Below are positions 1 to 17,692 of a stretch of 64,000 bases of DNA, piece by piece (the stretch's first letter is position 1; each line of letters begins with the position of its first letter). The stretch comes from a bacterium. Lineage in GTDB: Bacteria; Bacteroidota; Bacteroidia; Bacteroidales; UBA3663. Made by a program: the position numbers and the translations under genes. The DNA lies in the NCBI GenBank assembly GCA_963631395.1, contig CAVGQN010000005.1, positions 8,446 through 72,445 of the forward strand, in the 5' to 3' direction. The notes under the pieces were generated by a model. It was not told the origin of the DNA and did no database searches. It worked only from the letters and a program-made list of their open reading frames with translations.

Positions 1-395
1 ATCTCGTAACAGCTGAGCGAGATGTCATCGTTGTCTCCACTCAGATTGCGGGTCGAGTAGAGGGCCTCTACCTGTATGCCAAAACGCTCTGTGCCGAACG
101 GTCGACCGGCAGGACGGGCGAAGCGTAGGTTGAAGGCAACACCGGCATTGAAACCCATGCTGCCAGATAGGCCTAAGTCCATATCGTCTTTCGGCATGGC
201 ATAATTGCCGCCCACTTTGGGCCCGATGGAGAGGGTGTAAGGTTTCAGGACTTCCTTGATGTTGTCTAATACGATTTCATCATCTGAGGTCATAACAGTC
301 TCGTCCTCGTCCGGTACTAAACGCAGGTCCTGAGCTGATACGGATGCCGCTATTCCGATAGCGGCAAACAATGTGAATAATGCTCTTTTTGACAT
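1..395 (-). CDS. Outer-membrane beta-barrel (porin-family-like) protein, N-terminal part only; continues beyond the window
   Basis: It is absent from the ORF track because it is open-ended. The minus-strand ATG is at 395-393. The translation is MSKRALFTLFAAIGIAASVSAQ (signal peptide), then GPKVGGNYAM...GFNAGVAFNLRF...GIQVEALYSTR, with the alternating pattern typical of small Bacteroidetes OM barrels. It starts 18 nt after the stop of the WG-repeat gene on the same strand. Confidence 0.55.
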   Translation of the reverse strand, partial: MSKRALFTLFAAIGIAASVSAQDLRLVPDEDETVMTSDDEIVLDNIKEVLKPYTLSIGPKVGGNYAMPKDDMDLGLSGSMGFNAGVAFNLRFARPAGRPFGTERFGIQVEALYSTRNLSGDNDDISLSCYE

Positions 396-413: not shown

Positions 414-1919
414 TTAAAAGTATGGTTGGAAAAGTATGCTTGATTGGACGCGTTCGCCCGTGTCAAGAGACAAGCTTATATCTTTTGTGTGGCTTGCAGT
501 TACTGTCGTTGTCCCCGTAATGGTCTTGCTGCCGTGCGCGGGAATCGTCACAGATACCTCCCGACCAGTTGACCATGTCGCCGTCACTGTCGCGGGCCGA
601 CTAGAGTCGTTGTATATTGTGGCACTGAAAGTTGCAATGTCGTTTTCGTCGGCTCTTATCGTTGAGGGCCCGGGTGCGGAAACACGGAGCCGGATGGGCT
701 GGCGGACCATGAATGTCTTCTCGAGTCTTGCCAAGGTGATTCCGTCGTTTTCGACTGCAATTTTTATAACACAGGACTCTGACCCCTTTCCGACAAACGG
801 TGTTATCGTGTAGGATTTTGTGGCCTCACGGCTGTTGCCCTGTGAGAGCATTGCCTCATATATGCCATCGCCCTTGTCGACAAGCACTCTCGGCGCATTG
901 AGACTGGAGGGAATGCTGCAGTCTATGGCTATGGAGGAAGGCTGGCCTTTCTGGTCCACTTCAATCTCATTGGGATTCTGCTCTGCGGTATACGATTTGA
1001 GCCCTATCTCTCCATCCGTGATGGCGAGCACGCCCTGTCTGCCATTACACTGGGTCAGTATGACCCCGTCATTGTATTGCGTGGCAAACGAATCGAACTG
1101 TGTCGGTACGATAACTGTTTCGCCTTCCTTCAAACCGAACTTCCCATCTTGGGCGAAAACGCTGTATCTTGAAGCTTCGCTAAACCAGGATTCCGAAACT
1201 TCCTTACTGGCATTGTTCCTCTTGTATAGTTGCTTGAATTCGGCTTCGTTCAACTTCTTGATTTTTTGTCCGTTGCTGTCAATTGCGGCGAAGTCTTTGT
1301 TGTAGGCGACAATAGCCGTCCCGCCATAAAAGCAGCTTGACATCGTCATCTCTCCGTAATGGAAATCGACGGGCAATGTGCCATAGGATCGGTCCCGGTC
1401 GTAAGCTTCGGAGATATACATGGTGTAGTTGCCCTGCCGCACGGAAGCCCACCCCTCACTGAATCGCATGGCGTAGTCGAACTGACACCTTACCACTATG
1501 CTGCCATTGGCAGAGATAAAGCCGTATTTGCCGCTACTGTTGATGACTGCAAGTTTGCCTTCCGACACAAACTGACTGCCGAGAGGTGACGGCAAGTAGT
1601 ATTGGGTAGTAATGGCGGTCACGTTTCCCGATTCGCTGATGATGTGTTTCAGCAAATACCTGTTGCCTTCTTTGATACCTGCCAGAGCATAGCCATGCCA
1701 GAATGGGGTAATGAAGTCACAACTGGCATCCATCAACACCTTGTCGCCGCTCTGCACCATGCCCCACTTGCCATTCTGCTGATAGACGTAGAGGTTGCGG
1801 TAATACCGCTGGATGTTGTCGTATTTAGGATGGATGGACCACATGGCAATTTTGGCATCGGCGTCGGCAAATGCCAAAACTGTCAATATGGGAATCAATA
1901 AGTCGCGACGTAAGTTCAT
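414..1919 (-). CDS. Secreted WG-repeat (KWG-type beta repeat) protein with a C-terminal beta-rich domain
   Basis: 501-aa ORF with a signal-like N-terminus (LLIPILTVLAFADA). It has repeated GKWG/GKYG/GKFG motifs (QQNGKWGMV, SSGKYGFI, QDGKFGLK). The C-terminal ~180 aa are T/S-rich and beta-like. Its start overlaps the stop of the upstream gene (ATGA at 1916-1919). Confidence 0.75.
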   Translation of the reverse strand: MNLRRDLLIPILTVLAFADADAKIAMWSIHPKYDNIQRYYRNLYVYQQNGKWGMVQSGDKVLMDASCDFITPFWHGYALAGIKEGNRYLLKHIISESGNVTAITTQYYLPSPLGSQFVSEGKLAVINSSGKYGFISANGSIVVRCQFDYAMRFSEGWASVRQGNYTMYISEAYDRDRSYGTLPVDFHYGEMTMSSCFYGGTAIVAYNKDFAAIDSNGQKIKKLNEAEFKQLYKRNNASKEVSESWFSEASRYSVFAQDGKFGLKEGETVIVPTQFDSFATQYNDGVILTQCNGRQGVLAITDGEIGLKSYTAEQNPNEIEVDQKGQPSSIAIDCSIPSSLNAPRVLVDKGDGIYEAMLSQGNSREATKSYTITPFVGKGSESCVIKIAVENDGITLARLEKTFMVRQPIRLRVSAPGPSTIRADENDIATFSATIYNDSSRPATVTATWSTGREVSVTIPAHGSKTITGTTTVTASHTKDISLSLDTGERVQSSILFQPYF

Positions 1920-3487
1920 TCTCTAACGCGATATCTGTTATACAATTCGACCAAATGCTTGATATTGCAGCAATAGGTTACTTCTGAACCCTCGATGCCA
2001 CTGCAAAGCACACCGACCAGGCGATGCGATTTGTCAACTACAGGCGACCCGCTTTGTCCGCCTATGCCTATGGCTTGAATCTGAATCTGATTGTCGTCGG
2101 GCATCTTGCTAAGGGAGGCTTTGTGTATGGTAGGATGCAGTTCCTTGCCGTCGAAAGTCTGATATCCGACATAGCCGCCCATCGGATAACCGGTGGTGAT
2201 CAGGTCTTCTTCCTGTGGTTTCAGTGTTGTTTCGTCTACCCGTGCCTTCTCTATATCATAGACGGCTCCCATCTCTACAAGATAATCAGGCGTCTTGCGG
2301 GTGTTTAACCGAATGAGAGCGACGTCCTTTTGCGCGTCGCCTGATTCGGCTATCACCTGCGCTTGCTGAAGGTCAATTTGACTGTTGACTTTAGAACCTG
2401 TCAGACCGACTCCGAATAGGATGTGTCTGCCGCCTATCTCCACTGGAGAAATCTGATAACGGTGCAACCAGGCATTCGCTTCGGTTGCAGACAGTCGGCC
2501 TTCGTTTACAATCTCCTGTAGAATCTGAACCAGGTCGCCACTGGTGGACTGACGTGCTTTTTCCATCAGTTGCCGTATCTCTTCTTCCATCTTGGCGCTG
2601 CGATATTCCCAAGGTACAGCGATATGCCGGTTTGTGCCCATTTCGCCGTTTTTCGAGATGAAGAATGCGGTGCCATAATAACCGATGGGAGAGAGCCCTG
2701 TTGTGTTGGTTTGTGCCTTCAAATCGCCATCGGCGTCATAGCCTATGTACCATTTGTCCGGCCAAATATCTTTCAAGACTGTTTTGAATGGGTCGTCCGT
2801 CACGTTTATCTCAAAGTAATAACTGCCATAGACACAAGCGGAGGCATTTTCCATGGCCTGCACCGTCGCGGGAGAAACCGTACTGCTCCATGGGATTAAC
2901 TTCCAGGCACCCCACGCACAAGCCAAGACAAGCACAATTGCTGCGACGATGCCCACTATCTTGGGCAAGTTGTTGCTGGGTATAAACTGCGACAGATTGA
3001 CGGGCACTCCGCCGCACACAATGGCATCGCTCCGCTTGATCTGTTTGGTTTGTCCGTTGTTCAGACATACCCCATTGACTGTCGACCCGTTTTTGCTGTG
3101 GTCTTCCAACCAGGCTTTGCCATTGCGGTCTATCTTGAGCGTCGCATGGTAGCGGCTGACGGTATTGCCGGTTATCTGTATCTCATTGCGCATGCTGGTG
3201 CCGATGCCATAGACAGCCTTGTATTTCGACAAGTCTTCGGGCTGGGGAATTTGGCTCCATAACAGTTCGACGTCACCGAACCGAATGGCGTCGCCGCGCT
3301 TGATGGATACTTGCGTGCCGGGTTTGATGGGACGGTTCATTACGAATGTCCCGTTGTGGCTATTCTTGTCTTCCAGGAGGATGTCTCCGTTGTTGAGTAT
3401 GGTAATCTCGGCATGTAGGGCACTTGCCATATTGCTGTGAAGTACGATGTCACAGTTAGAGTCCCTGCCGACTTTTAGTAGTCTCAT
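1916..3487 (-). CDS. FHA-FHA-TM-trypsin-like serine protease (membrane-tethered)
   Basis: 523 aa. It has two FHA-like modules (LLKVGRDSNCDIVL...NSHNGTFVMN; TGNTVSRYHATLKIDRNGKAWLEDHSKNGSTVNG) and one hydrophobic helix (IVGIVAAIVLVLACAWGAWKLI). A chymotrypsin-fold domain follows, with His (GTNRHIA), Asp (KDVALIRL) and Ser (GGQSGSPVV) motifs. Confidence 0.85.
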   Translation of the reverse strand: MRLLKVGRDSNCDIVLHSNMASALHAEITILNNGDILLEDKNSHNGTFVMNRPIKPGTQVSIKRGDAIRFGDVELLWSQIPQPEDLSKYKAVYGIGTSMRNEIQITGNTVSRYHATLKIDRNGKAWLEDHSKNGSTVNGVCLNNGQTKQIKRSDAIVCGGVPVNLSQFIPSNNLPKIVGIVAAIVLVLACAWGAWKLIPWSSTVSPATVQAMENASACVYGSYYFEINVTDDPFKTVLKDIWPDKWYIGYDADGDLKAQTNTTGLSPIGYYGTAFFISKNGEMGTNRHIAVPWEYRSAKMEEEIRQLMEKARQSTSGDLVQILQEIVNEGRLSATEANAWLHRYQISPVEIGGRHILFGVGLTGSKVNSQIDLQQAQVIAESGDAQKDVALIRLNTRKTPDYLVEMGAVYDIEKARVDETTLKPQEEDLITTGYPMGGYVGYQTFDGKELHPTIHKASLSKMPDDNQIQIQAIGIGGQSGSPVVDKSHRLVGVLCSGIEGSEVTYCCNIKHLVELYNRYRVRE

Positions 3488-3506: not shown

Positions 3507-4142
3507 TTAACCGATAGCTCTTAGTGTGGATTTAGAAGAATCCTCCATGACTGAGTCTTCCTTGGCATTGCCCTCGTCGGCGTTGTCTTTCTTTTGCAAC
3601 TTTTTAGTCGGAGTGGCCTTCTTCGTTGCCTTAATTGAATCTTGACGGGCCTTTTCTATCGAATCTTGAGCAACTTTAATTGAATCTTGGCGCTCAACGG
3701 TCTTGATGGAGTCAAGTTTCGCTGCCTCTTTTTGTTTGATGTCTGTTGAATCCGTCTTCTCGATGGCTAACGGACTTGCGTCGCCATTGTCACCCGAATC
3801 GTTCTGTAGGGACTTTGCGCCCCAGACAAGGCCCAATATGACTACAACAGCAGCGGCAGCACCGAGGGTGTACTTTATCCACTGGTTGGATTTTGGTACT
3901 TGGTCCCAATCCAATTTGGCCACATGCGCCAACGACACAATGTCCTTGCGCGTGACGGGGACGGGGACGTTTTGGGTAATCCGGATGCCATTGACATAGG
4001 TGCCGTTGCTACTCTGGTCGACGATGGTCATCTTGCCGGAGGAGGTGATGTTCAAGAGCGCGTGACGGCGGCTGATGACATCGGTAGAGTCGTTAATGAC
4101 TATGTCGCAGTTAAGGTCGCGACCGATGGAATATGTTTTCAT
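3507..4142 (-). CDS. FHA domain protein with a single TM helix and a low-complexity tail
   Basis: 211 aa. N-terminal FHA (YSIGRDLNCDIVI...SRRHALL...DQSSNGTYVNG), then a TM helix (LGAAAAVVVILGLVWGA). The K/D/S-rich tail carries 4 copies of QDSI(K/E)-like units. Confidence 0.8.
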   Translation of the reverse strand: MKTYSIGRDLNCDIVINDSTDVISRRHALLNITSSGKMTIVDQSSNGTYVNGIRITQNVPVPVTRKDIVSLAHVAKLDWDQVPKSNQWIKYTLGAAAAVVVILGLVWGAKSLQNDSGDNGDASPLAIEKTDSTDIKQKEAAKLDSIKTVERQDSIKVAQDSIEKARQDSIKATKKATPTKKLQKKDNADEGNAKEDSVMEDSSKSTLRAIG

Positions 4143-4164: not shown

Positions 4165-5184
4165 TCAATTGTTATTGCTTGTTTGAGGGTTTGCTGTCGT
4201 GGCCGAATCTGCGCTCACGCTATCGCCCTTCAGCTTGAGCGAATCTACTACCGCGCACTCGGTTTTTTCGGCTTGCGGTACATTCCCTTTTTGCGTAAAG
4301 CACAAGGCCACACTGACGGCCAGGCCCACGATGCAGACGGCGATAAGTCCTATCAGTGAAAATTTGAGTTTTGGGCTCATCTTGGGTCTAAGTTCCGATT
4401 TTGTATTGGTTTCTACGATGGCAATGGTCATATTGTCATGACCGCCGCCAGCGTTGCGTCCCTTGCCGTCGATGACCGTCGCTATCTCGTCAGTGACTGT
4501 GCCGAGTGCGTGTTTCTTGTCCGATGCCATCCCAATCAGTTCGGCTTCGGATACGGACCCGTGTATGCCGTCGGTCGTCAGAACAAAGCGGTCTCCCCGG
4601 TCGTAGGGCAGTTCGATGATGTCGACGTCCATGTCCGGCTTGATGCCCAAAGCGCGGGTGATGACATTCGACTGGGCCGAAAGTCTTGCCTGCTCTTCTG
4701 TGATGACTTTTTGCTTGACCAAATCAAATACCATCGAGTGGTCGAAGGTGCGGAACACCTTGCTTTTGCCCCTCAACTGATAGACCCGGCTGTCACCGAC
4801 ATGTGCGACGATGGCAGACGCCTTGCTGATGAGCAGTACGGTACACGTCGACCCCATGCCCTTCAGGGCCGGTGTGTTGTTGCCGGCTTCGTGGATGGCC
4901 AGATTGGCGCGTCTGATAGCCTTTAACACAATATTCGTGGCCGTATCATCGGGATTGCCTTCCGTTATGCCGGTGATAATCTCACGGACGGCGATGGACG
5001 ATGCTGTCTTTCCTCCGGGACCGCCTCCCATGCCGTCGCATACGGTGACCACAAACCCGTAAGGCGTGTCACAACTGCCATAGGAGTCTTGATTTTCAGC
5101 ACGGCCACCTATCCGCGATTCAGCAAATCCGGTTACGAAGGTTGGCGTTTTTAGTTGTTGGATCAAATCCATAGTTGTTTTCAA
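4165..5184 (-). CDS. PP2C-family Ser/Thr phosphatase with a C-terminal TM anchor
   Basis: 339 aa with PP2C motifs (GRAENQDSY, VCDGMGGGPGG, LTTDGIHG, GGHDNMT) and a C-terminal hydrophobic helix (LIGLIAVCIVGLAVSVALCF). Its start codon directly abuts the stop of the upstream kinase gene. Confidence 0.9.
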   Translation of the reverse strand: MKTTMDLIQQLKTPTFVTGFAESRIGGRAENQDSYGSCDTPYGFVVTVCDGMGGGPGGKTASSIAVREIITGITEGNPDDTATNIVLKAIRRANLAIHEAGNNTPALKGMGSTCTVLLISKASAIVAHVGDSRVYQLRGKSKVFRTFDHSMVFDLVKQKVITEEQARLSAQSNVITRALGIKPDMDVDIIELPYDRGDRFVLTTDGIHGSVSEAELIGMASDKKHALGTVTDEIATVIDGKGRNAGGGHDNMTIAIVETNTKSELRPKMSPKLKFSLIGLIAVCIVGLAVSVALCFTQKGNVPQAEKTECAVVDSLKLKGDSVSADSATTANPQTSNNN

Positions 5185-6108
5185 TTAGTTTAGACCGAGC
5201 CATTTCTTCAATCGCTGCATTATCGTGGGCGGTGGCAACAAGGCTTCCGTCAAGGCTTCTCTGAACTCTCCGGCCGTCTGAAGCCTTTTGGACTGTTCTT
5301 TTTCCGTTGCCTTTGTAATGACGTTCATAATCCGTCCGGGTATTGCTTCGTGTGGGGGCAATGGGTCCCTTAACTGTCGGGTCAGCGTGTCGACCTCGGT
5401 ATCTGCATCAAACGGATTGGTGCCTGTCAGTATTTCGTAGAAGGTGATGCCCAGGGCATACAGGTCTGTGGCTGCATTGATCTGTACCGAACGGGATTTG
5501 TCTCTCAATATCTGCTCGGGCGCTGCATACTGAGGCGTTCCGATGAAGCCATATTGCGAGAATTTGTTGCCGTCGTTCATCCTGGCTATGCCCAGGTCCA
5601 TCAGCCGGATGTTCGAATCGCTTTCGACCATGATGTTGGAGGGCTTGATGTCGCGATGGATTACTCCTCTTGAGTGTATGTACTCCAAAGCATCCAGGAC
5701 CTGAAAGATGGCATGACAAATCTTTTGTACCCTGTCACTGCCCGTGAGAACGTCTTTGGCATACTCGTCGATGTTTTTGCCCGAGACGTATTTGCTGACC
5801 AGGAATATCGGACCGCTGTCGGGCGCATATTCACAGTAACCAATCATCTCGACAAGATTGTCGTGCCGGAAGGCCAAGGAGGCTTCCTGCCGGGCCCTTT
5901 CGCGAATCATCGGATTGTTGGAATAACTGTCCTTGACCCGTTTGATGGCCATGCGGGTCCCATCTTTGACGCGATAACCTAGATAGACAGTGCCCATAGC
6001 TCCACTTCCCAAGGGCATAGACGCAGGGTCATAGCAATACCATTGCCCCATGACGAAGAGGTAGATGTACGGGTCGTCCGGCCTCTGATATACGGTCTTG
6101 CTGCTCAT
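5185..6108 (-). CDS. Hanks-type Ser/Thr protein kinase, soluble
   Basis: 307 aa. G-loop GSGAMGTVY, AIKRV lysine, catalytic loop HRDIKPSN, DLG in place of DFG, and GTPQYAAPE. No TM helix. Confidence 0.9.
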   Translation of the reverse strand: MSSKTVYQRPDDPYIYLFVMGQWYCYDPASMPLGSGAMGTVYLGYRVKDGTRMAIKRVKDSYSNNPMIRERARQEASLAFRHDNLVEMIGYCEYAPDSGPIFLVSKYVSGKNIDEYAKDVLTGSDRVQKICHAIFQVLDALEYIHSRGVIHRDIKPSNIMVESDSNIRLMDLGIARMNDGNKFSQYGFIGTPQYAAPEQILRDKSRSVQINAATDLYALGITFYEILTGTNPFDADTEVDTLTRQLRDPLPPHEAIPGRIMNVITKATEKEQSKRLQTAGEFREALTEALLPPPTIMQRLKKWLGLN

Positions 6109-7757
6109 GGTCGGGTCGGCTTTAGGTTGGTCATTCGGCCTTTGATGGCTTGCGTATATTCTTTATCGCCGGCTTTGATGGCCAATTGCAGCGCTTTGTT
6201 CAGATACAGGTAAGCGGAGTCCGTATTGAATGTAGCACCGCGCCTCTTCGACTTGTAGTCGCACCCGAGTTCGAACAGAGATTTGTAGTCTTCGGAGTTG
6301 AGAGCTACGGCATTCTTCAACAGTCTGTGTGCTTCCTTGTTTTGGGCGCTTATACCGAGGTTGCTCCGGAAGAGAGCGATGGAATCGGCGAAAGTTCCGA
6401 TTTTGATGCTCTCCGGACTGTCAAAGTACAGACGGCTTAACAAGAAGACGGAACGGTAGTCGTTGGCATCAGACAGTTGCTTGAGCATGACGAGACCCTC
6501 ATCGGCAGTACTCCTATCGAGCAACAAGGCCAGGGCTTGGCGATACGATGGCTGTGGGGTCTCTGCCTCTTGGCTGCCAATAGTAGCCATCACTGCTTCG
6601 GCAGTCATCTGGTCAGAGGGAGCGTCGCTTTCTACTTGGTATAGACTTTCTTGGCCTAGGTTCTCTGCATACGCCGTAGGTTCGCTACTGGCTGCGTTTG
6701 GCGCAGCTGCATTGCTGCTTGACTGGTTTATTGCAAAGAGGGCAATTCCGACAACCGCTGCTGCGCTTCCGATAGCGATGCCGATGGCCTTCGAATTGAT
6801 TGCATTGGCTGGATATTGCAAGGGAACGAGCCGCTCTACTGCCACCCGAAACTCCGCTGCGCTCTGATACCGCTTGGAACGTTTCTTTTGTGTAGCGGTT
6901 TTGATGACCTCCCTAATCTGCTTTTGTTTCACATTGCCTAATGGCATTTTCTTCGTGAGTTGCATCTCAAGCACCTCTGCCATTTCACCGTCAAAAGGAA
7001 CCTTGCCGACCAGCAGTTGGTATAATAGAACGCCGACGGCATAGAGGTCAGTGGTTGCATTTTGCGAGTCCGGCAGACCCCTTACCAATTCCGGGGCTGC
7101 GTATTTGGGCTTCCCCATGAATTGCCCATCCACCGTGTACGATGTTTCCTTGGTGTTGTTACCATTGAGTTTCTTCGCGATGCCGAAGTCTATCAACTTG
7201 ATTCTCCCGTCGGAGGTAACCATAATGTTGGAGGGGTCGATATCCCGATGGATATACCCGGCATCATGAAGGGCCATCAACCCGGAGAGGAGATTGCGTA
7301 TTATGGTGAGGGCAAAATGGTAGGGGTCGGTTTGTCGCTTCCCATATAACTCTTGTGCAAAAGGAATAATATTCCCTTTGTGGTCATAGGTCTTGCCTTC
7401 CAGTAACTTGTCCAGGGTGACTCCATGCAGGTACTCACTAACGACATGATAGCGTATCACGGGTTGACCAAGCGCGTCCGTCCCTTTTATTTCCAGGAAG
7501 CCAAGCATCTCGATGAGATTGTCATTGCGGAGTTGGACGGCCGCTTCGCGTCGGGCACGCGCAATCACACGAGCAGGCAAATCGCTATAAAGGAACTTTA
7601 TTGCGACTTCTCTGCGCTGATTGTTATACTCATTACATTGCCAGCCTTTGTAGACCTTACCCATACCGCCTTCGCCTAATGGCGTGTCGGTCGGGTCGTA
7701 TTCGTAATAGATGCCCAATCTGCGCTCTTGATCCCCTTGTAATCTTACGGTAGCCAT
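6105..7757 (-). CDS. Hanks-type Ser/Thr protein kinase with a TM helix and an extracytoplasmic Sel1/TPR-like domain
   Basis: 550 aa. G-loop GEGGMGKVYKG, VAIKF, catalytic loop HRDIDPSN, DFGIA, GKPKYAAPE. TM helix IGIAIGSAAAVVGIALFAI. The C-terminal ~170 aa have Sel1/TPR-like helical repeats (FLLSRLYFD..., LFELGCDY..., YLYLNKALQLA). A 4-nt ATGA overlap links it to the downstream kinase gene. Confidence 0.9.
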   Translation of the reverse strand: MATVRLQGDQERRLGIYYEYDPTDTPLGEGGMGKVYKGWQCNEYNNQRREVAIKFLYSDLPARVIARARREAAVQLRNDNLIEMLGFLEIKGTDALGQPVIRYHVVSEYLHGVTLDKLLEGKTYDHKGNIIPFAQELYGKRQTDPYHFALTIIRNLLSGLMALHDAGYIHRDIDPSNIMVTSDGRIKLIDFGIAKKLNGNNTKETSYTVDGQFMGKPKYAAPELVRGLPDSQNATTDLYAVGVLLYQLLVGKVPFDGEMAEVLEMQLTKKMPLGNVKQKQIREVIKTATQKKRSKRYQSAAEFRVAVERLVPLQYPANAINSKAIGIAIGSAAAVVGIALFAINQSSSNAAAPNAASSEPTAYAENLGQESLYQVESDAPSDQMTAEAVMATIGSQEAETPQPSYRQALALLLDRSTADEGLVMLKQLSDANDYRSVFLLSRLYFDSPESIKIGTFADSIALFRSNLGISAQNKEAHRLLKNAVALNSEDYKSLFELGCDYKSKRRGATFNTDSAYLYLNKALQLAIKAGDKEYTQAIKGRMTNLKPTRP

Positions 7758-7821: not shown

Positions 7822-8601
7822 TTATAGGCCTACAGTGCCACCGCCTCCGTAATTGTTGGATGAATCCGTGTCTACGGTAGAACTTGACGGACGGTTGCCT
7901 CCATTATATGATGAGTCGGGCCCGTTGAATCGAGGCGGGAAGTCTTGCTCGTTGTGTGTGGTATAGCCCTGGCCGGTCGTTTGGTTATTGGTATTGACTT
8001 TCTCTTCATGCTCGTTCCTTACGTCATAGAAACTTTCAGATACATGCAGGCCGAGAGCCTTTGTGTCGATAAGCAAAAGCAGCAAATCGTAGTTCTCGCC
8101 GATGGTGATTACGTCTCCGTTCACGCATTCGATAGGCCGGGCCATAGAAACGCTGTTCTCATTGACAAGAGTTCCATTGGTGGAGCCCAAATCAGAGATG
8201 GTGGCTTCTGTCTTCTCCGGCTTCTTCATCTTGTTGATGTGCAGGTTGGCATGCCGATGAGAAACGGTGCCTTCGCCAAGGATGATGTCGCAATCAGGCG
8301 AATTGCCGATAATGTTCTGACCGATGTGCAATGGCCAGTATTCACCGGCTGCAGTACGCGAAATCGAGTACAGGAATCCGACAATGGGTTTCCCGTTGCC
8401 TTGCGATGGCTGTGGGGATTGGGAGCATCTCTGAGCGGATGCACCTTCTGCTTGAGATGCCATCCCGGGGAAGACAGTCCCGTTGGCTTGTCTTTGATTG
8501 GACGAACGAGTGTATTCTGGGCTTCCTCCAGAAAACGACTGATTGGGATTGAAATCATCTTCTTGACCTAATCCCGGGAAAACGGTTTTGTTTTGTGACA
8601 T
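7822..8601 (-). CDS. FHA domain protein, soluble, with disordered termini; first gene of the operon
   Basis: 259 aa with a central FHA (WPLHIGQNIIGNSPDCDIIL...SHRHANL...DLGSTNGTLVN). Both termini are low-complexity and G/S/N/Q-rich. Confidence 0.8.
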   Translation of the reverse strand: MSQNKTVFPGLGQEDDFNPNQSFSGGSPEYTRSSNQRQANGTVFPGMASQAEGASAQRCSQSPQPSQGNGKPIVGFLYSISRTAAGEYWPLHIGQNIIGNSPDCDIILGEGTVSHRHANLHINKMKKPEKTEATISDLGSTNGTLVNENSVSMARPIECVNGDVITIGENYDLLLLLIDTKALGLHVSESFYDVRNEHEEKVNTNNQTTGQGYTTHNEQDFPPRFNGPDSSYNGGNRPSSSTVDTDSSNNYGGGGTVGL

Positions 8602-8649: not shown

Positions 8650-8666
8650 ATCTCTTGTTTAGAGAT
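8650..8666. repeat. Left inverted-repeat / recombinase core-like site (ATCTC-TTGTTTA-GAGAT)
   Basis: Read directly from the sequence. It has 5-bp inverted arms around a 7-bp asymmetric spacer. It matches site R at 8930-8946 as an inverted repeat in 16 of 17 positions. Confidence 0.5.
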
Positions 8667-8909
8667 TTGGAATAAGGATAAAGATGTGGTTGTCTGATGC
8701 TTATAATATCGCTCCCTGTCAACTTCCTAAACATTATTCTTGATTACGGATTATTCTTATTGTTGTTTTAATTGATAATATAAGGGCGAAGGCAAGGAAT
8801 AATATATTGTTCTGGCTGAATTTGGCATATCCATGCGGCAAAATCATGGTATTTGCTGAAAGATTTTCTGTTTTTGCTCAGCGTTGTGTGGTTGTTAGGA
8901 AATTCTTTG

Positions 8910-8917
8910 TACCTTTG
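8910..8917 (+). promoter_or_regulatory. Candidate Bacteroidetes -7 promoter box TACCTTTG (TAnnTTTG)
   Basis: It is the only TAnnTTTG match on either strand in 8602-9046. Weak -33-like GTTG motifs lie ~20-25 bp upstream. It points away from the FHA operon in the orientation given. Confidence 0.3.
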
Positions 8918-8929
8918 TCCCGGGTAATT

Positions 8930-8946
8930 ATCTCTAAACAAAAGAT
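8930..8946. repeat. Right inverted-repeat / recombinase core-like site (ATCTC-TAAACAA-AAGAT)
   Basis: Read directly from the sequence. The spacer TAAACAA is the exact reverse complement of the site L spacer TTGTTTA. It lies ~100 bp from the stop of the tyrosine recombinase gene. Confidence 0.5.
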
Positions 8947-9046: not shown

Positions 9047-10282
9047 TTACTGATTCAGCCTTTCTAGAATAGCCGCGTTGGCCTGATCTACGACCGAGGT
9101 ATCGAGACTGGCAAGATAGATTCTTGTCGTCGTTTCCGAGTTGTGCCCCATGCCCTCGCTGATTACGCTCAACGGAATGACTTCGGTTTGGGCAATGGAA
9201 GCCCAACTGTGACGTGCCACATACATGGTTAAGTGAATCCGAAGTTGGAGCAAGCCCGATATCTGTTTGAGACTTCGGTTAATGTTGTAGCCTACATTGA
9301 GATAGGCGTACCGCTCGTTGATGCCTACAGACTTGATGACGGGAAGCAGATAGGCGGATTCGTTTGTGGGGTATTTGTTCATGATGCGCTGCATGTCGTC
9401 GGTCCATTGGATGGTGAGCTGTTGGCCCGTCTTATGGCGACGGTAAGATATTCGCCCGTTCCTTAAGTCTGATTTCTTCAGATATGCCATATCTATGAAA
9501 CTCATGCCACGGAGATAGAAACTCATCATAAACATGTCGCGGGCAAAGTCCAGGGCGGGTGCGTGAGATAAATCCAAGTCTTTGATTTGTCTGACAACGG
9601 CCAAGGGTAAGGCTCTTTTGACGGTCTTGTCAATTCCGGTATAGATGCGCCGAAACGGCATGCGGTTTTCGATAACTCCGTCCTCGACAGCGCGGTTGTA
9701 TACGGCACGGAGGATGCGGGCATAAAAGGAAATGGTATTGGGAGTGACTCCCCGCTTGCGCTGCCATGCTTCGTATGCTTCCATAATTTTTGAGTCGAGG
9801 CAATCGAGCATCAAGTCTTCGCCTTGTCTGAATTTCCTGAAACTGTTGAGGGTGGCCCGATGCGTTTCGGCTGTTCTGATTTTCCCGTTCTTCTTTAGTC
9901 TGACAATGACGTTTTCCATATAGTTGAAGAGCGAGTACTCGTGCAGGTAGCTGACGAATTCGTCCACGACATCGTCGGCGGTGTAGGAATAGCCATCGAG
10001 GTCCAGCCGTCGAATGACTTTTGTCAGCCGTTCGACGTCTCCTCTGATGCGCTCGCGTATGGAAAGGACAATGGACTTGCGCTCGCTCTTGCGGGAGGTC
10101 GTAACCATACCACGTTTCTCATCCCATTCGGATGGGAATACGTGGTAGGAAGTTGACAACTGGCGCACTTTGCGCTCATGAATCACTTGATAATAGACAG
10201 TGCCTTCGCCATCTGCAACGGACGATGGCCGGAATTTAACTTTTATGGATGCCATAGGTATGTTGTTGTTTGACATTTCCAC
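9047..10282 (-). CDS. Site-specific tyrosine recombinase/integrase (Bacteroidetes type)
   Basis: 411 aa. Arm-binding-like N-terminus (MASIKVKFRPS...VYYQVIHERK), a SAM-like core-binding region, and a catalytic C-terminus with VARHSWAS and GHNSETTTRIYL (Tyr nucleophile context). Confidence 0.9.
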   Translation of the reverse strand: MEMSNNNIPMASIKVKFRPSSVADGEGTVYYQVIHERKVRQLSTSYHVFPSEWDEKRGMVTTSRKSERKSIVLSIRERIRGDVERLTKVIRRLDLDGYSYTADDVVDEFVSYLHEYSLFNYMENVIVRLKKNGKIRTAETHRATLNSFRKFRQGEDLMLDCLDSKIMEAYEAWQRKRGVTPNTISFYARILRAVYNRAVEDGVIENRMPFRRIYTGIDKTVKRALPLAVVRQIKDLDLSHAPALDFARDMFMMSFYLRGMSFIDMAYLKKSDLRNGRISYRRHKTGQQLTIQWTDDMQRIMNKYPTNESAYLLPVIKSVGINERYAYLNVGYNINRSLKQISGLLQLRIHLTMYVARHSWASIAQTEVIPLSVISEGMGHNSETTTRIYLASLDTSVVDQANAAILERLNQ

Positions 10283-10451: not shown

Positions 10452-11693
10452 TTATCCGAAGATATTGCCCTCGACAGAGGTGCTGCCAGGCTGGCCCTGT
10501 GGAGCGGAACTAAGGCCGCACAAGTCATCATACGAACGGCTGTAGGCCGGCGAGTTTTCGAGGCGCGTAGCGAGCTGCTCGTCCGACAAGTCGTCCTTGT
10601 CGAAGATGTAGAAGTTCTTCCGAATCTGGTTCATCCGCATTTCCTCTTCCGTTTCCTCGTCGTAGTACGTGCCGATTTTGGCCTTCGTCTTCGTGGGTGT
10701 TTCTCTGATGTCATCTACCTCAAAGCCGGCTGCAAGTATGATGAAGCGCACTTTGTCTTCGAGGGTATCGTCTTGCAAAGCTCCCCAGATGACCTCGATG
10801 TCCGGCCTCAACTTGTCTACAAAGCGGGTCACTTCGTTCATTTCTTCCATCGACGGTTGACTTTGGGCCGAATAGCAGATTTCGAACAGCAGACGTTTGG
10901 CGTTCGTAATCTTGTTGTCTTGCAGCAATGGAGACACGATGGCCTCGTTGATGGCTTGCGTCACGCGGTTCTCGCCGGAGGCTTCGCCCATGGAAATCAA
11001 GGCTACGCCACTGTTCTCGAGCGTCTTCTTGACATCGGCAAAGTCGAGGTTGATATAACCGACCTTGTTGATGATGTCGGAGATGCTGCGCGTGGCTCGT
11101 GTCAGGGTGTCGTCGGCTTTCTTGAATGCATTGAAGAACTGCAGGTCCGGATAGATGTCTATGAGCCTGTTGTTGTTGACGACGAGAAGGGCATCCACAT
11201 ATTTGCGGATTTCCTCCACACCTCTTAGCGCCATCTCGATTTTCATCTGTCCCTCGAACTTGAACGGGATGGTCACGATGCCTATGGTGAGGATGCCCAT
11301 GTCGTGAGCTATTCTGGCTACGACGGGTGAAGCTCCCGTGCCTGTGCCGCCGCCCATGCCGGCTGTGATGAAGATCATCTTGGTCCCGTCGTCCAAGGCA
11401 TTGCGGATGGCCTCTTCATACTGGAGGGCGTACTCCCGCGCCTTTTCGGGCTGGGCACCTGCACCCAGTCCTTCGTCAGAGATCTGCAGTTTCTGCGGAA
11501 CGGGCGAGTCTTCGAGAGCAGCCCTATCGGTATTGATGATGAGGAAGGTCACGTCCTCAATACCTTCGTTGTACATATTGCGGACAGCGTTGGAACCGCC
11601 GCCGCCTACTCCGGCCACCTTGATGATAGATTTCAGTTGGTCGGCCGTTTCGGCATATCCGAACTGAAGGGTGTCTTGCGTATTGTTTTCCAT
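10452..11693 (-). CDS. ftsZ: Cell division GTPase FtsZ
   Basis: 413 aa with GVGGGGSNAV and the tubulin signature AGMGGGTGTGASP. It is the last gene of the dcw cluster. Confidence 0.95.
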   Translation of the reverse strand: MENNTQDTLQFGYAETADQLKSIIKVAGVGGGGSNAVRNMYNEGIEDVTFLIINTDRAALEDSPVPQKLQISDEGLGAGAQPEKAREYALQYEEAIRNALDDGTKMIFITAGMGGGTGTGASPVVARIAHDMGILTIGIVTIPFKFEGQMKIEMALRGVEEIRKYVDALLVVNNNRLIDIYPDLQFFNAFKKADDTLTRATRSISDIINKVGYINLDFADVKKTLENSGVALISMGEASGENRVTQAINEAIVSPLLQDNKITNAKRLLFEICYSAQSQPSMEEMNEVTRFVDKLRPDIEVIWGALQDDTLEDKVRFIILAAGFEVDDIRETPTKTKAKIGTYYDEETEEEMRMNQIRKNFYIFDKDDLSDEQLATRLENSPAYSRSYDDLCGLSSAPQGQPGSTSVEGNIFG

Positions 11694-11741
11694 ATTGTGG
11701 AGTTGCGACTGATTGTTATCTGATGTGAATGTTGATGCGGG

Positions 11742-12971
11742 TTAATTCTCATCCCCGCTTACGTGAAACAAATCATCGAAGATGGTGCGGGCAGCGCCCT
11801 TGAACAACATTGTTCCCTTCTTTTCCTTTTTGCCTGTCTCGTTGCTCTTGTCTGTTTCGACATTCGATGGCTGCACCGCTTTTTCTTCTTCAAAACAAGA
11901 GTCCGTGCAGTGGTCGAGCATCGTCATGAGCGAAGACATGGAGGGGTCGTTGTCGGAAGAGTTGTAGCATAGCGTGCTGCAACTTCGGGTGCTGATTGGG
12001 CTTATCTCCAACCGTTTCTCGAAGAGGTCGTGCAGGCCTTTCTGTACGGAACATCCGCCTGTCAACACGCATCCGCCTGTCAGTTGGCCTTTGTAGCCGG
12101 ATTGCTCCAGCTGATGGGTGATGTTGGCGATAATCTCTTCGTAGCGTGCTGCGACGATGACGTTCAGTTCTTTGGGCGGGATAGAGGACGGGCTTGCAGT
12201 GTTCTTGTCTGCCGGACGGGAAGCGTCGCTCCACATAATCTTCTGATTCTCAGCCTCTTCGACGCGCAGCCCTTTGGAAGCGATGTCGCGCGTCACGGCA
12301 TTGCCGCCGAGCGGAATGACGGTCAGGAAGCGCAACTTGCCTTCTTTCCAGATGGACATGGTGGTGAGTTGTGCGCCCATATCTACCAGCAATGTTCCAC
12401 CGGACCTTTCGTCTTCGGTCAGGATGTCGTTTTGCACAAGCGGCAGCACATGCCAGCCGGCTATCTTGAGACCGGCTTTCTCCATCACGCTTTGTATGCC
12501 CTGCCTAAGCCGGCTTTTGGCCAGGATGAGCTGATGATGCCCGATGACCTGTTGCCCGGAGACTTCCTCTCCGTTATTATAGAGGTCGATGATATCGTAG
12601 CCCGGGATGCTGAGGTGCCGGCTTTGGTCTTCCATCTGCTGTATGGTTTTTTCCGGGACAAACAACTCGTTGCCCAGAAGGGCAGACGGGCAGTACTCCA
12701 TACTGTGCATGGATATGCCGCAGATGCCGACATAAGCGGAACTCAGATTGACGTTGCCGTGCTCTTTGATGCGGTTGTTGAGTTTGCGCACAAGGTTTTT
12801 GATATGGACGGCGGCCTCGTCGGCATTGACGACCCATCCATGTCGGATGCACCCTGCAGTGGGGACAGACTCTACCGCCATCACGGTGTGGCGGCCTTTC
12901 TTGTCGATTTGGGCCACAGCGGCGCTGATGTGCGATGAACCGAACTGTATAGCGGCGGTTAAGGTTTCCAT
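11742..12971 (-). CDS. ftsA: Cell division protein FtsA (actin-like ATPase)
   Basis: 409 aa with actin-fold phosphate motifs (AIQFGSSHISAAVA, LLVDMGAQLTTMS, VLTGGCS) and a C-terminal amphipathic helix (MLFKGAARTIFDDLF). It sits between ftsQ and ftsZ. Confidence 0.9.
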   Translation of the reverse strand: METLTAAIQFGSSHISAAVAQIDKKGRHTVMAVESVPTAGCIRHGWVVNADEAAVHIKNLVRKLNNRIKEHGNVNLSSAYVGICGISMHSMEYCPSALLGNELFVPEKTIQQMEDQSRHLSIPGYDIIDLYNNGEEVSGQQVIGHHQLILAKSRLRQGIQSVMEKAGLKIAGWHVLPLVQNDILTEDERSGGTLLVDMGAQLTTMSIWKEGKLRFLTVIPLGGNAVTRDIASKGLRVEEAENQKIMWSDASRPADKNTASPSSIPPKELNVIVAARYEEIIANITHQLEQSGYKGQLTGGCVLTGGCSVQKGLHDLFEKRLEISPISTRSCSTLCYNSSDNDPSMSSLMTMLDHCTDSCFEEEKAVQPSNVETDKSNETGKKEKKGTMLFKGAARTIFDDLFHVSGDEN

Positions 12972-13017
12972 TCGAAATTATTTTGTTTTTTTATTTATAG
13001 CGTTTTTACGTTGTGTC

Positions 13018-13761
13018 TTATCGTTTTACGGCCACTACCTGGTCGTTGAATTTCAGGTTGATGGTCTTGTAGGTGTTCCATCCTTTCGTCTCCAGGACTT
13101 TTTTCTCGAAAACATCGTAACGGGCGAGTTTCTTCTCGAAATTGTCGATTGAACCCAACAGAATGGTGAAATCGCCTTTGCGCGGCACCAACCGGATGCT
13201 TTGGTCCTCATCGACATAAATCTGTACAATCCGGTGACGCCACTTCTTGTTTCCATTGAGGAACTTGGCAAACTCATAGAGCGGACCGGTGGCTGTCTCT
13301 TTCGTGACATAACCGGTGACGAGCGGGACGTTGACGGCGTGCCGTGTCGCCTTGTAGGGCATCAGCCGTCCGTCCGTGTCGAGGTAGACATCGGACGAAA
13401 GCCGGGTGCTCTTGATGCGCATGATGGGCTTGCGCTGATAGATGTCGATGCGCATCGTGCCGTTGGGCGTGGGATAGCAGTCGGCATTGCCAATCAGACT
13501 GTTCTGCTCCAGCACCTTCTCAAGACGATAGGCATTGAACTCCCTGATCTTCTTGCCAACAGGGTTCAGCGACACCGAACTGTGGATGATTCGCGTCACG
13601 TCGCGGTTGCCCACAAACTGGGATTCCGCACTGTCGCAGATGACCACGTCCAGTTTGCTGACCACTCGCTCCGGCTGCCCAATACGCCACACGTATCCGC
13701 ACACTGCCAGATAGGCAATGAGAACTATGACGCCGAATATCTTCAGTATGCGTTTGAACAT
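13018..13761 (-). CDS. ftsQ: Cell division protein FtsQ (POTRA-containing)
   Basis: 247 aa with an N-terminal TM helix (IFGVIVLIAYLAVCGYVW). Size and position between murC and ftsA fit FtsQ. Confidence 0.7.
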   Translation of the reverse strand: MFKRILKIFGVIVLIAYLAVCGYVWRIGQPERVVSKLDVVICDSAESQFVGNRDVTRIIHSSVSLNPVGKKIREFNAYRLEKVLEQNSLIGNADCYPTPNGTMRIDIYQRKPIMRIKSTRLSSDVYLDTDGRLMPYKATRHAVNVPLVTGYVTKETATGPLYEFAKFLNGNKKWRHRIVQIYVDEDQSIRLVPRKGDFTILLGSIDNFEKKLARYDVFEKKVLETKGWNTYKTINLKFNDQVVAVKR

Positions 13762-13872
13762 CTTACGGTTTTTATTTCAGCACTTCTTTGTTTCAGCACA
13801 TCTTTTTTATTTCAGATCCATCAACATAGGCCCTTATTTCAGCACTTTTATTTTAGTGCCTCATTTCAGCAC
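13762..13872. repeat. Five copies of the murC 3' terminus motif (minus strand GTGCTGAAAT[G/A]A), filling the murC-ftsQ gap
   Basis: Plus-strand ATTTCAGCAC is at 13774-13783, 13836-13845 and 13863-13872. The last copy is the real murC end. A shorter TTTCAGCAC copy lies at 13791-13799, and the variant ATTTCAGATC at 13809-13818. Confidence 0.8.
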
Positions 13873-15264
13873 CTCGTACACTTTGGGCACAAGCCGCTCG
13901 ATGTCGGTGCCTGCCCCCATCATGACGACTACGTCGAGGTCTCCTTTGGCGCGGAGTTCCTGCAAGTGGCTGACTACCTCGTTCGTGTCTATGACGTAGC
14001 GCTCCGCTTGTATGCCCTTCTTCGCATCTTCGGCTTTGATTTTGTCGAGCAGCCACTCGGAGGTAATGCCCGGGATGGGTTTTTCGCGAGCCGGATAGAT
14101 GGGGATGAGGATGGTGCGCTGCGGTATGCCCAAAGCCTGGGCAAAACCGTCGGCCAGGTCGTGTGTGCGTGAATAGAGGTGAGGCTGGAAGACGACGGTT
14201 ACCTTTCGGCCTTCGAACAGTCGGCCGACGGAGGTCAGACTAGCCCGAATCTCGTCGGGGTGGTGTGCGTAATCGTCGAGGAGCACGAGGTCCGAACGGT
14301 TGATGTAGAAGTCAAAGCGGCGCTTTGCCCCGCCGAAACTCTTCAGTCCCTCGCGGAGCTCTGTTTCTGTGCATCCGTTCAGCAGGCAGACGGTCAAGGC
14401 TGCCGTGGCATTGTCGACATTGACGGGCACGGGCACGCCGGGCTCGAGGTCGCGGAGTATTATTCCTTCCTTGCGGGCCACATAGTCGAAGCGTATAGTG
14501 CCGCCCCCGATGCGGATGTTGGTGGCGTAGTAGTCGGCCTCTTCGGTCGAAGAGTATTCGGCGTAGCGAGCGCTCGGGTTAAGCTGCGAGCAGTCGACCT
14601 TGATGCCCTTGTGCTTGAGCAGCATTCCGTCCGGACGAACCAGCGAGACGAAGTGAGCGAAACTCTCGCGGTAGGCTTCCTCCGTTCCGTAGATGTCGAG
14701 ATGGTCCGGGTCACAGGCCGTGATGACGGCCGTGTAAGGCGAGAGCGTATGGAACGAACGGTCGAACTCGTCGGCCTCGATGACCGTGAGGTCGCTCTTG
14801 TCAGACAGCATCAGGTTGGAGTCGTAGGGCTTCAGGATGCCGCCCAGGAAGGCGTTGCAGTCCACATGGCTTTGCTTGAGGATGTGCGCTATCATGCTCG
14901 AGGTCGTGGTCTTGCCGTGTGTGCCGGCCACGCAGATGCCGCGCTTCTCGCGGGTGATGATGCCGAGCAATTCGCTGCGCTTTACGACCTTGAATCCGTT
15001 CTGCTGAAAGTAGCAGAGTTCGCCGTGGTCTTTCGGAATGGCCGGCGTGTAGCAGACCAGCGTTTCTGCCGGATCTTTAAAACAAGGGTCTACGGCGTCG
15101 ATGTTGTCTTCGAAATGGATTTGTATTCCTTCGCGGATGAGCTGGTCGGTCAAGGTCGATGGAGTGCGGTCGTAGCCTCCTACCCGATAACTGTTTTCGT
15201 TGAAGTAACGTTCGAGCGCCGACATGCCGATGCCGCCTGCTCCTACAAAATATAGACTTTTCAT
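13861..15264 (-). CDS. murC: UDP-N-acetylmuramate--L-alanine ligase MurC
   Basis: 467 aa with FVGAGGIGMSALERY and the Mur ligase P-loop GTHGKTTTSSM. Confidence 0.95.
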   Translation of the reverse strand: MKSLYFVGAGGIGMSALERYFNENSYRVGGYDRTPSTLTDQLIREGIQIHFEDNIDAVDPCFKDPAETLVCYTPAIPKDHGELCYFQQNGFKVVKRSELLGIITREKRGICVAGTHGKTTTSSMIAHILKQSHVDCNAFLGGILKPYDSNLMLSDKSDLTVIEADEFDRSFHTLSPYTAVITACDPDHLDIYGTEEAYRESFAHFVSLVRPDGMLLKHKGIKVDCSQLNPSARYAEYSSTEEADYYATNIRIGGGTIRFDYVARKEGIILRDLEPGVPVPVNVDNATAALTVCLLNGCTETELREGLKSFGGAKRRFDFYINRSDLVLLDDYAHHPDEIRASLTSVGRLFEGRKVTVVFQPHLYSRTHDLADGFAQALGIPQRTILIPIYPAREKPIPGITSEWLLDKIKAEDAKKGIQAERYVIDTNEVVSHLQELRAKGDLDVVVMMGAGTDIERLVPKVYEVLK

Positions 15265-16370
15265 TTCTTTCCTTTCTCTTTGACGATTTCGATGACTATT
15301 TTGGCAATGGTTTCGGCAGCCCCGAAACGGCCGTGTTTGGCGGCATTCGCTTCAAATCGGTGTATTCGGTCTGTGTCGTTGATGAGGGCGATTGCCTCGT
15401 CCGTCAAACGTCGGGGAGCTTCGGCATCCGGACAAAGGATGGCAGCGTCTGCCTCCGAGAGAACCCGTGCGTTGGCTGTCTGATGGTCTTCGGCGGCTGT
15501 GGGTAGCGGAACAAAGATAGCTGCTTTGCCCAGCAGGCAGACCTCGTTGACACCGCCGGCACCGGATCGGGAGATGACGACATCGGCAGCGCGGTAGGCC
15601 ATGGCCATGTCGCTGACAAACACCGTGGGGTGTACGTGCTTTGCGCCCGAAGTACGGACGGCCTCTTCCCACTTTGTGCCGTCAGCCTTGCCGGTTTGCC
15701 AAAGCACCTGTATGCCTGACTTCTCCAACTTGTCGAGCCCTGCGGCAATGGCGTTGTTCACGCTGCGTGCTCCCAGGCTGCCGCCCGTGATGAAGAGCGT
15801 CTTGCGGTCCGGCTCCAAGCCCAGGGCAACACGTGCTTCTTGCGGTGTGGCCTTGCACTCCAGAAGTTTCTGCCGTACAGGATTGCCAGTCATGACGATG
15901 CGGTCGGCCGGGAAGAAGCGCTCCATGCCGGGATAGGCGACACATATCTTCTCGGCATCCTTGGCGAGCCGTTGGTTGGTCACGCCAGCGAAGCCGTTCT
16001 GCTCCTGCAGAATATAGGGAACGCCCAGCGAATGGGCGGCCTTAAGTGCTGCGGCACTCGCATAGCCGCCTACTCCGATGGCGATGTCCGGCTGGAAGTT
16101 GCGGATTATCTTCTTGGCGCTTTGTATGCTGCGGTACAAATCCCACAGCACCTTGACATTGCCGGGATGGAAGAGGGGGCGGATAAAGCCCCGTACCGGC
16201 AGTCCGATGATTTTGTAACCCTCGGCCGGTACTTTCTCCATCTCCATTCGGCCCAGCGCCCCGATGAAGAGGAACTCTGCGTCCGGGTCTGCCTCGCGAA
16301 TGGCATTGGCTATTGATACTGCGGGGAAGATGTGGCCACCCGTGCCACCTCCGCTTACGAGAACCTTCAT
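15261..16370 (-). CDS. murG: Lipid II N-acetylglucosamine transferase MurG
   Basis: 369 aa with SGGGTGGHIFPA and a GT28 C-terminal region (ITGGSLGA...). A 4-nt overlap links it to murC. Confidence 0.95.
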   Translation of the reverse strand: MKVLVSGGGTGGHIFPAVSIANAIREADPDAEFLFIGALGRMEMEKVPAEGYKIIGLPVRGFIRPLFHPGNVKVLWDLYRSIQSAKKIIRNFQPDIAIGVGGYASAAALKAAHSLGVPYILQEQNGFAGVTNQRLAKDAEKICVAYPGMERFFPADRIVMTGNPVRQKLLECKATPQEARVALGLEPDRKTLFITGGSLGARSVNNAIAAGLDKLEKSGIQVLWQTGKADGTKWEEAVRTSGAKHVHPTVFVSDMAMAYRAADVVISRSGAGGVNEVCLLGKAAIFVPLPTAAEDHQTANARVLSEADAAILCPDAEAPRRLTDEAIALINDTDRIHRFEANAAKHGRFGAAETIAKIVIEIVKEKGKK

Positions 16371-16385
16371 ATTGTTCTATTGGTT

Positions 16386-17669: not shown

Positions 17670-17692
17670 TTTGCGTATGGTGTTTTAGTTCG

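Follow-up and report, generated by a model that had tools for sequence, protein, structure and literature searches.

A predicted FHA-FHA-transmembrane-S1 protease encoded within a Ser/Thr phosphorylation operon of Bacteroidales

DegS of Escherichia coli is an inner-membrane-anchored regulatory protease of the HtrA family. It acts in the sigma-E pathway, carries a PDZ sensor at its C-terminus, lacks a cytoplasmic domain and signals from the outside in, to the cleavage of RseA. MarP (Rv3671c) of Mycobacterium tuberculosis carries an extracytoplasmic S1 protease without a PDZ domain on a four-helix anchor and acts on envelope proteins. In the H1 type VI secretion system (T6SS) pathway of Pseudomonas aeruginosa, the receptor Hanks kinase PpkA and the PP2C phosphatase PppA work with the output adaptor Fha1, and TagQRST feed the kinase. 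Two FHA proteins, a transmembrane (TM) PP2C and two Hanks kinases are also encoded together in the actinobacterial cluster fhaA-fhaB-pstP-rodA-pbpA-pknA-pknB. Here, we describe a gene at 1916..3487, on the reverse strand, of a 64,000-nt stretch of DNA from a gut bacterium of the Bacteroidales, lineage UBA3663 (the window; GenBank assembly GCA_963631395.1, contig CAVGQN010000005.1, positions 8,446 to 72,445). It encodes a 523-residue protein with two FHA domains, one TM helix and an S1 protease domain, and it lies in an operon with two kinases and a phosphatase. By analogy, this protein would be most like DegS or MarP in its working, and most like the PpkA/PppA/Fha1 pathway in its signalling logic. 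We propose, with a probability of roughly 0.5, that, on the periplasmic side, the protease serves as effector arm of the operon's Ser/Thr phosphorylation module, to which it would be linked by phosphothreonine (phospho-Thr) docking through its FHA domains.

A first-pass annotation, made from the sequence alone, had read the open reading frame (stop codon at 1916-1918) as two FHA domains, one TM helix and a C-terminal trypsin-fold domain in one polypeptide, and Pfam, hydropathy and the AF2 model agree on this architecture. The FHA family was matched over two stretches with an E-value of 1.6e-29 (102.5 bits against a cutoff of 20.7), and both FHA domains are supported by Pfam, alignment and AF2. 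They span residues 1-75 (3263..3487) and 89-165 (2993..3223). Only one hydrophobic segment is present, with a 19-residue Kyte-Doolittle peak of 2.46 at residues 177-195; together with the AF2 helix and the flanking charges, it places the TM helix at residues 174-197 (2897..2968). The model, calculated from a 91-sequence family alignment, has a mean pLDDT of 94.6. Both FHA regions are modelled as all-beta sandwich domains (pLDDT >93), followed by the 24-residue helix, a short low-confidence linker (198-208) and a double-barrel protease domain (209-523; 1919..2863). About 40 residues extend beyond the catalytic Ser, and the protein ends in a single helix.

The protease domain was detected by Pfam Trypsin_2 (PF13365; E-value 1.1e-9, 39.6 bits against a cutoff of 27.6), over residues 367-493 only, which correspond to the C-terminal half of the protease profile. 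The match is partial because a helical insertion splits the domain. In the AF2 model, a two-helix hairpin (298-328 and 334-345) directly follows the catalytic His, and the family-specific insertion occupies residues ~296-346 (2450..2602) of the His-Asp interval. This interval measures 73-135 residues in all of the 75 homologues from our genome scan, versus ~45 in exfoliative toxin A.

The motifs quoted in the first-pass annotation for an intact triad were located at residues 284-290 (GTNRHIA), 388-394 (DVALIRL) and 477-484 (GQSGSPVV). Alignments of homologues assign the catalytic residues to His288 in TNRHIA (codon 2624..2626), Asp388 in DVALIRL (2324..2326) and Ser479 in GGQSGSPV (2051..2053). 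That annotation had allowed for the triad residues being misaligned or not conserved in homologues, and neither is the case. In the diverse family alignment, His288 is retained in 89/91, Asp388 in 91/91 and Ser479 in 89/91 sequences, while the glycines of the GGQSGSP motif are kept in 90/91 (G477) and 91/91 (G480); all 75 species-level homologues from genomes have the His, Asp and Ser. E-values and conservation of this order greatly exceed what chance would produce.

Foldseek searches of the PDB returned the protease domains of HtrA1, plant Deg, DegS and DegP as best matches (E-values of ~3e-9, target TM-scores of 0.65-0.73, 12-15% identity). A profile of the 75 homologous periplasmic domains gave as best matches exfoliative toxin A, SplA and V8 protease (E-values from 5e-13 to 1e-10), with Deg/HtrA enzymes ranking after these staphylococcal proteases. 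The TNRH, D-[VL]-A-L and G-x-S-G-S motifs align with the catalytic residues of the profile matches, including those of exfoliative toxin A. On the strength of these fold and profile matches, with the catalytic motifs aligned, the domain is, as judged from sequence and model, a genuine clan-PA (S1) protease placed between subfamilies S1B and S1C: it has the double barrel, the His-Asp-Ser order and the G-x-S-G motif of the clan. The S1C members HtrA, DegP and DegS are characterized by a C-terminal PDZ domain and by oligomers that are built from trimers and activated allosterically through loops, and no PDZ match was obtained with Pfam in this protein, even at E<=1. The S1B enzymes (V8/GluV8, Spl and the exfoliative toxins) share its TNRH(I/V)A and G-x-S-G-S-P motifs, but they are free, secreted enzymes with signal peptides and propeptides, whereas this protein is tethered to the membrane, fused to FHA domains, devoid of a signal peptide and longer in its His-Asp spacing. 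The S1B-like sequence motifs are present nonetheless. Peptidase_S46 was rejected as the family, the match (E-values of 0.002-0.007) covering only the active-site Ser motif.

Close homologues are numerous (72-99% identity, 519-532 residues, the identical trio of Pfam matches), with the source labels Muribaculaceae, Muribaculum and 'Bacteroides sp. CAG:927'. An exhaustive search with residues 200-523 against 1.84 billion representatives at 50% identity gave 368 clusters at E<=1e-3. Among the best 150 of these 368 clusters, 92 representatives have the FHA-FHA-TM-protease architecture and 13 more have FHA-TM-protease; the remainder are mostly fragments, or have an N-terminal anchor or signal only. 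The genome scan yielded 79 loci, 75 of which hold the protease gene. Their labels are Muribaculaceae, Prevotella, Bacteroides, Phocaeicola, Parabacteroides, Alistipes, Alloprevotella, Tannerellaceae and Lentimicrobiaceae, and the named species include B. rodentium JCM 16496, Phocaeicola massiliensis DSM 17679, P. faecalis and P. intestinalis. Two metagenome-assembled genomes among the 79 loci carry a Chlorobiaceae label. As the scan patterns were built from closer relatives, the taxonomic picture is biased toward Bacteroidales, and a restriction to this order is therefore not proven.

The full-length architecture occurs on hundreds of independent contigs, and the isolates B. rodentium JCM 16496 and P. 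massiliensis DSM 17679 have it in their genomes. A single cluster of Phocaeicola homologues was encountered on at least 1000 contigs. The possibility left by the first-pass annotation, that the architecture is a fusion artefact absent from related genomes, is thus contradicted by its wide occurrence in Bacteroidales. We see virtually no chance that the protein is an error of assembly or annotation, or an inactive pseudo-protease. The sole point for such an explanation is the partial Trypsin_2 match, which the insertion explains; against it stand this distribution and the invariant triad of the genome homologues.

The architecture is already in the databases, and therefore not new there. Annotations of homologues read 'FHA domain-containing protein', 'S1 family peptidase, partial' or, in IMG, 'FHA protein/V8-like Glu-specific...'. 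An 'FHA-FHA-Tryp' protein, NP_811686.1 of Bacteroides thetaiotaomicron, was catalogued once, without function (Tripathi & Sowdhamini, BMC Genomics 2008; PMC2605481). Our protein matches that architecture, and the two are putative orthologues. In the literature, no functional study of the protein or of the operon was found besides this catalogue of architectures. The conflict-system papers of the Aravind group name FHA and trypsin domains separately, and do not name the FHA-FHA-TM-protease architecture.

The FHA fold begins at residue 2 in the AF2 model, and therefore no signal peptide precedes it. In the 91 family members, the net charge is +1.7 over the 15 residues that precede the TM helix and +0.24 over the 15 that follow it. 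Relatives of the protease domain without FHA domains have an N-terminal hydrophobic anchor or signal instead. Moreover, the operon's four membrane proteins (kinase, PP2C, FHA-TM protein and protease) are built alike: a cytoplasmic domain precedes a single TM helix, N-in/C-out. Because of the absent signal peptide, the single TM helix, the positive-inside bias, the anchored relatives and the layout of the operon, cytoplasmic FHA domains and a periplasmic protease domain are strongly favoured, in line with the topology suggested in the first-pass annotation. The protein would then resemble MarP in having a TM anchor and an extracytoplasmic S1 protease without PDZ; MarP, however, has neither FHA domains nor a dedicated kinase/phosphatase operon.

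The protease gene is the sixth of its operon, in the order FHA, TM-kinase, soluble kinase, TM-PP2C, FHA-TM and protease, followed by genes for secreted and outer-membrane proteins. All these genes are on the reverse strand. The first one (7822..8601; Pfam, orthologue comparison) encodes a 259-residue FHA protein with a disordered N-terminus. It is followed by a membrane-spanning Ser/Thr kinase of 550 residues (6105..7757; Pfam, NCBIfam, hydropathy), with a C-terminal periplasmic region of ~200 residues in which no Pfam match was found, and by a soluble Hanks-type Ser/Thr kinase of 307 residues (5185..6108; Pfam, NCBIfam, motif comparison). The two kinase genes overlap in an ATGA. Next come a PP2C phosphatase of 339 residues with a C-terminal TM helix (4165..5184; Pfam, NCBIfam, hydropathy) and a 211-residue FHA-TM protein (3507..4142; Pfam, hydropathy), the latter made of a canonical FHA domain, one TM helix and a low-complexity extracytoplasmic tail.

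This arrangement is widely kept. The FHA-TM gene immediately precedes the protease gene in 71/75 loci, and the complete FHA-STK-STK-PP2C-FHA series (STK, Ser/Thr kinase) is found upstream in 47/75. The protease is encoded together with kinase and PP2C genes in 78-79 of the 79 loci (PP2C in 78/79). In L070, L071 and L078, where the gene order is rearranged, FHA, PP2C and kinase genes continue to flank the protease gene. The link of the protease to Ser/Thr phosphorylation is strong, and is the most robust result of the comparison between genomes. No gene for a transcription factor, sigma factor or anti-sigma factor was found in the domain matches run on the operon, which leaves the protease as the sole enzyme of effector type observed. 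DegS, which shares the N-terminal membrane anchor and the periplasmic chymotrypsin-fold protease and is among the best fold matches, differs in several respects: our protein has no PDZ, possesses two cytoplasmic FHA domains and an insertion after the catalytic His, and is not accompanied by sigma or anti-sigma genes.

The H1-T6SS pathway is also a trans-envelope kinase/PP2C/FHA module with accessory periplasmic and outer-membrane proteins. Its output, however, is the assembly of the T6SS, whereas here FHA domains are covalently joined to a periplasmic protease. No T6SS genes were found among the operon neighbours, and the NCBIfam model TIGR03354 (TagH/Fha1) matched the protease protein with 52.6 bits, below the cutoff of 120.25. 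The actinobacterial cluster has the same set of two FHA proteins, a TM-PP2C and two Hanks kinases in an operon, but no protease fusion, and the Bacteroidales operon is without RodA or PBP genes.

The catalytic loop of the soluble kinase is canonical (HRDIKPSN), with DLG replacing DFG. In the membrane kinase, this loop reads HRDIDPSN, with Asp in place of the usual Lys, and it is kept as HRD[IL]DP[ST]N in 50/53 loci. The two proteins may constitute a pair of a receptor pseudokinase and an active kinase. The first FHA protein contains two T-V-F-P-G motifs, at residues 6-10 and 42-46, and T-[VIM]-[FYVI]-P is found at about positions 6 and/or 40 in 41/61 of its orthologues. These motifs are possible candidates for phospho-acceptor or FHA-docking sites. 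Thr motifs near the N-terminus, ahead of an FHA domain, recall the layout of GarA/OdhI. The NCBIfam match to OdhI is weak, and the scores for FhaB and OdhI are far below the cutoffs.

In the mechanism that we propose, the operon kinases would make phospho-Thr sites, either on the kinases themselves or at the T-[VIM]-[FYVI]-P motifs of the first FHA protein, and the PP2C would remove them. At least the first FHA domain of the protease protein, and perhaps the second, would dock on these sites, by which protease subunits would be recruited to, or clustered at, the receptor complex. This clustering would set the time and place of cutting by the periplasmic domain. The helical insertion beside the catalytic His, conserved and variable in length, is a likely, putative gate in the model. 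The candidates for cutting are periplasmic proteins from the same operon, or exposed tails of membrane proteins that belong to the complex itself. Kinase activity inside the cell may, in this manner, control the cutting of proteins outside.

The first FHA domain fits this mechanism, as its pocket is fully canonical (G7-R8, S22, H25 and N45-G46-T47). Several observations weigh against it. A protein that crosses the membrane with a single helix must be controlled through oligomerisation or localisation. The second FHA domain retains S111-R112, H114 and N133-G134, but its G96-T97 means that it lacks the GR arginine, which normally contacts the phosphate and is normally essential for phospho-Thr binding. 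In the family alignment, this position is Arg in 53/91 sequences for the first domain and in 19/91 for the second. The first-pass annotation had called both domains phosphothreonine readers; this prediction is well founded for the first and uncertain for the second, in which a Thr replaces the arginine.

The unconserved arginine would also be expected if both FHA domains were structural, as in SctD/YscD, and the protein were a phospho-independent scaffold, that is, a fixed trans-envelope component in charge of housekeeping or maturation proteolysis of the co-encoded envelope proteins. Yop-YscD_cpl is the second-best Pfam match, and SctD/YscD of type III secretion systems and GltG of Myxococcus have the same layout of a cytoplasmic FHA domain, one TM helix and a periplasmic domain (weak NCBIfam matches). 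However, the periplasmic parts of SctD and GltG are ring-building or TonB-C-like and their FHA domains are without phospho-Thr pocket, while the pocket Ser, His and Asn-Gly are invariant or nearly so in both FHA domains of the 91 diverse sequences. The SctD model TIGR02500 gave no match, and the periplasmic part is an S1 protease. No secretion-system genes are present in the operon, and the near-constant company of kinase and PP2C genes also speaks against a scaffold, which we consider unlikely.

Information could also flow in the opposite direction, from periplasm to cytoplasm. The protease would then be activated by a ligand or substrate, or be constitutively active in a DegS-like manner, and would process a periplasmic signal protein or the sensor region of the kinase, while the FHA domains would only tether it beside the phosphorylated kinase complex or report its state to the kinases. 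The closeness of the fold to regulatory proteases of the HtrA/DegS type is in favour of this explanation, as are the secreted and outer-membrane proteins of the operon (a WG-repeat protein, a secreted protein of ~420 residues, an outer-membrane protein (OMP) barrel and a lipoprotein), which could deliver an envelope signal. Elsewhere, WG repeats are indeed extracytoplasmic modules of Ser/Thr kinases. On the other hand, Pfam reveals neither a PDZ nor any other recognisable ligand-sensing domain on the protease, and the receptor kinase already has its own periplasmic region. Such an outside-in or tethering role is less likely than our proposal, though the sequence data are compatible with both and it carries the most weight among the rivals.

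The WG-repeat protein was named as a plausible substrate or partner of the protease in the first-pass annotation, which also recorded the coupling of the two genes. The repeats and the coupling overlap are both confirmed. The gene (414..1919, reverse strand) encodes a 501-residue protein with an N-terminal signal-peptide-like helix, WG_beta_rep repeats and two C-terminal Ig-like domains (Pfam, AF2), and its start overlaps the stop of the protease gene in an ATGA at 1916..1919 that recurs in homologous loci. The WG gene immediately follows the protease gene in 50/75 loci and is found farther downstream in 6 more; among the 50 adjacent pairs, the overlap is of 4 nt in 19 and of 1 nt in 8. In its AF2 model (pLDDT 91.1), the signal-peptide helix is followed by a compact domain of WG beta-repeats and then by the pair of Ig-like domains; the C-terminal part gave no Pfam match. 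The PDB offered generic beta-propeller or Ig folds at low TM-scores, among them the periplasmic sensor of the hybrid two-component protein BT4663. In other phyla, Ser/Thr kinases (P0365, P0377 and P0379) carry WG repeats as C-terminal, extracytoplasmic modules behind a TM helix, and additional kinase-WG fusions exist.

Owing to this compact fold and these fusions, the WG protein resembles a partner of the kinase pathway, of a ligand-binding or sensor type, more than an obvious substrate, though it may still be cleaved. Adjacency is the sole support for a substrate. This reading is weakened by its well-folded beta-repeat and Ig-like domains, its occurrence in 57/79 loci, and the existence of a steadier neighbour: a family of signal-peptide proteins of ~420 residues (about 415-440), present in 68/79 loci. 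Where the WG gene is not next, the protease gene is followed by a gene of this second family. Its members are labelled 'hypothetical protein', gave no Pfam match and contain a repeated LKNGSxxxGxI, with an N-terminal 'LKNGSVLxGYI' (e.g., locus L001, 10056-11378). Other frequent members of the operon are an OMP barrel (33 of the 79 loci) and a lipoprotein (30). In the window, the next gene is visible in its 5' part only (1..395, reverse strand) and runs off the edge; from its homology to the gene after WG in L001, it encodes an outer-membrane beta-barrel of the OMP_b-brl_2 type. Past this gene, the L001 operon continues with a lipoprotein, the ~420-residue secreted protein and an SH3b/OMP-like protein. 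In addition, a single Logan contig (P0335) encodes a 765-residue protein in which PP2C is joined directly to the WG signal-peptide region. It is apparently a deletion of the FHA-TM and protease genes and was not used as evidence.

Upstream of the operon, between it and ftsZ of the dcw cluster, lies a gene for a tyrosine recombinase (9047..10282, reverse strand; domain matches Phage_integrase, Arm-DNA-bind_5 and SAM_5). It adjoins a pair of 17-nt inverted repeats (8650-8666 and 8930-8946), which enclose a 263-nt segment (8667-8929) within the 445-nt gap before the operon. In shuffled controls, repeats of at least 15 nt were obtained in 2/290 trials. Repeats of the type ATCTCT-N5-AGAGAT flank 148-163 nt at the same position in six related Muribaculaceae loci (L002, 4250-4442; L003, 2896-3086; L005, 1311-1507; L010, 4255-4450; L023, 4234-4424; L026, 1192-1380). 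The asymmetric core of the repeats varies between species and is always complementary between both arms. The sole Bacteroides-type -7 motif (TAnnTTTG) of the region is located inside the 263-nt segment and is directed away from the operon. Because of the recombinase, the complementary repeats and the enclosed promoter motif, 8650..8946 is a candidate invertible promoter segment that the recombinase would control, which suggests that the operon is phase-variable in this clade. The combined view is that the FHA domains read Thr phosphorylation in the cytoplasm and thereby activate the periplasmic protease, a true inside-out signal by proteolysis across the inner membrane, that envelope proteins of abundant gut Bacteroidales are remodelled as a result, and that this response is phase-variable in this Muribaculaceae clade. 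It is possible but, taken as a whole, tentative.

A recombinase directly upstream could also be the mark of a mobile anti-phage or conflict module, in which kinase, FHA and protease would form a defence system on an integrative element. In L002, L010 (degraded), L023 and L026, the recombinase is again found next to the operon, and the DNA farther upstream is unlike that of the window; in addition, the kinases match the PADLOC models PD-T4-6 and mad6, and the protease weakly matches RT-Protease_XI. These PADLOC matches are generic, however, being to the kinase, PP2C and trypsin domains, and a system-specific component is absent. The order of the operon is conserved across many families of Bacteroidales, envelope proteins included, the integrase is absent from most loci, and a recombinase with inverted repeats fits a promoter invertase better. 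A role in defence is therefore very improbable. As for the rest of the window, the dcw cluster of cell-division and peptidoglycan genes is complete (10452-22206, reverse strand: murE, mraY, murD, ftsW, murG, murC, an unassigned 247-aa ORF, ftsA and ftsZ). Its G+C content is 0.55-0.60, versus ~0.50 for the operon. The only tRNA gene of the window is a tRNA-Ser (GGA) at 27655-27743.

The proposal of a phosphorylation-controlled protease is of interest since the regulated proteolysis known from the bacterial periplasm mainly runs outside-in, as with DegS and RseP. The operon is conserved across Bacteroidales, common species of the human gut included, and the 2008 catalogue places a homologue in B. 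thetaiotaomicron, a genetically tractable species in which the hypothesis is directly testable. If it is true, the protease would provide a Hanks-kinase pathway with a simple and direct route onto the cell envelope, having two cytoplasmic phospho-Thr readers as its sole regulatory appendage.

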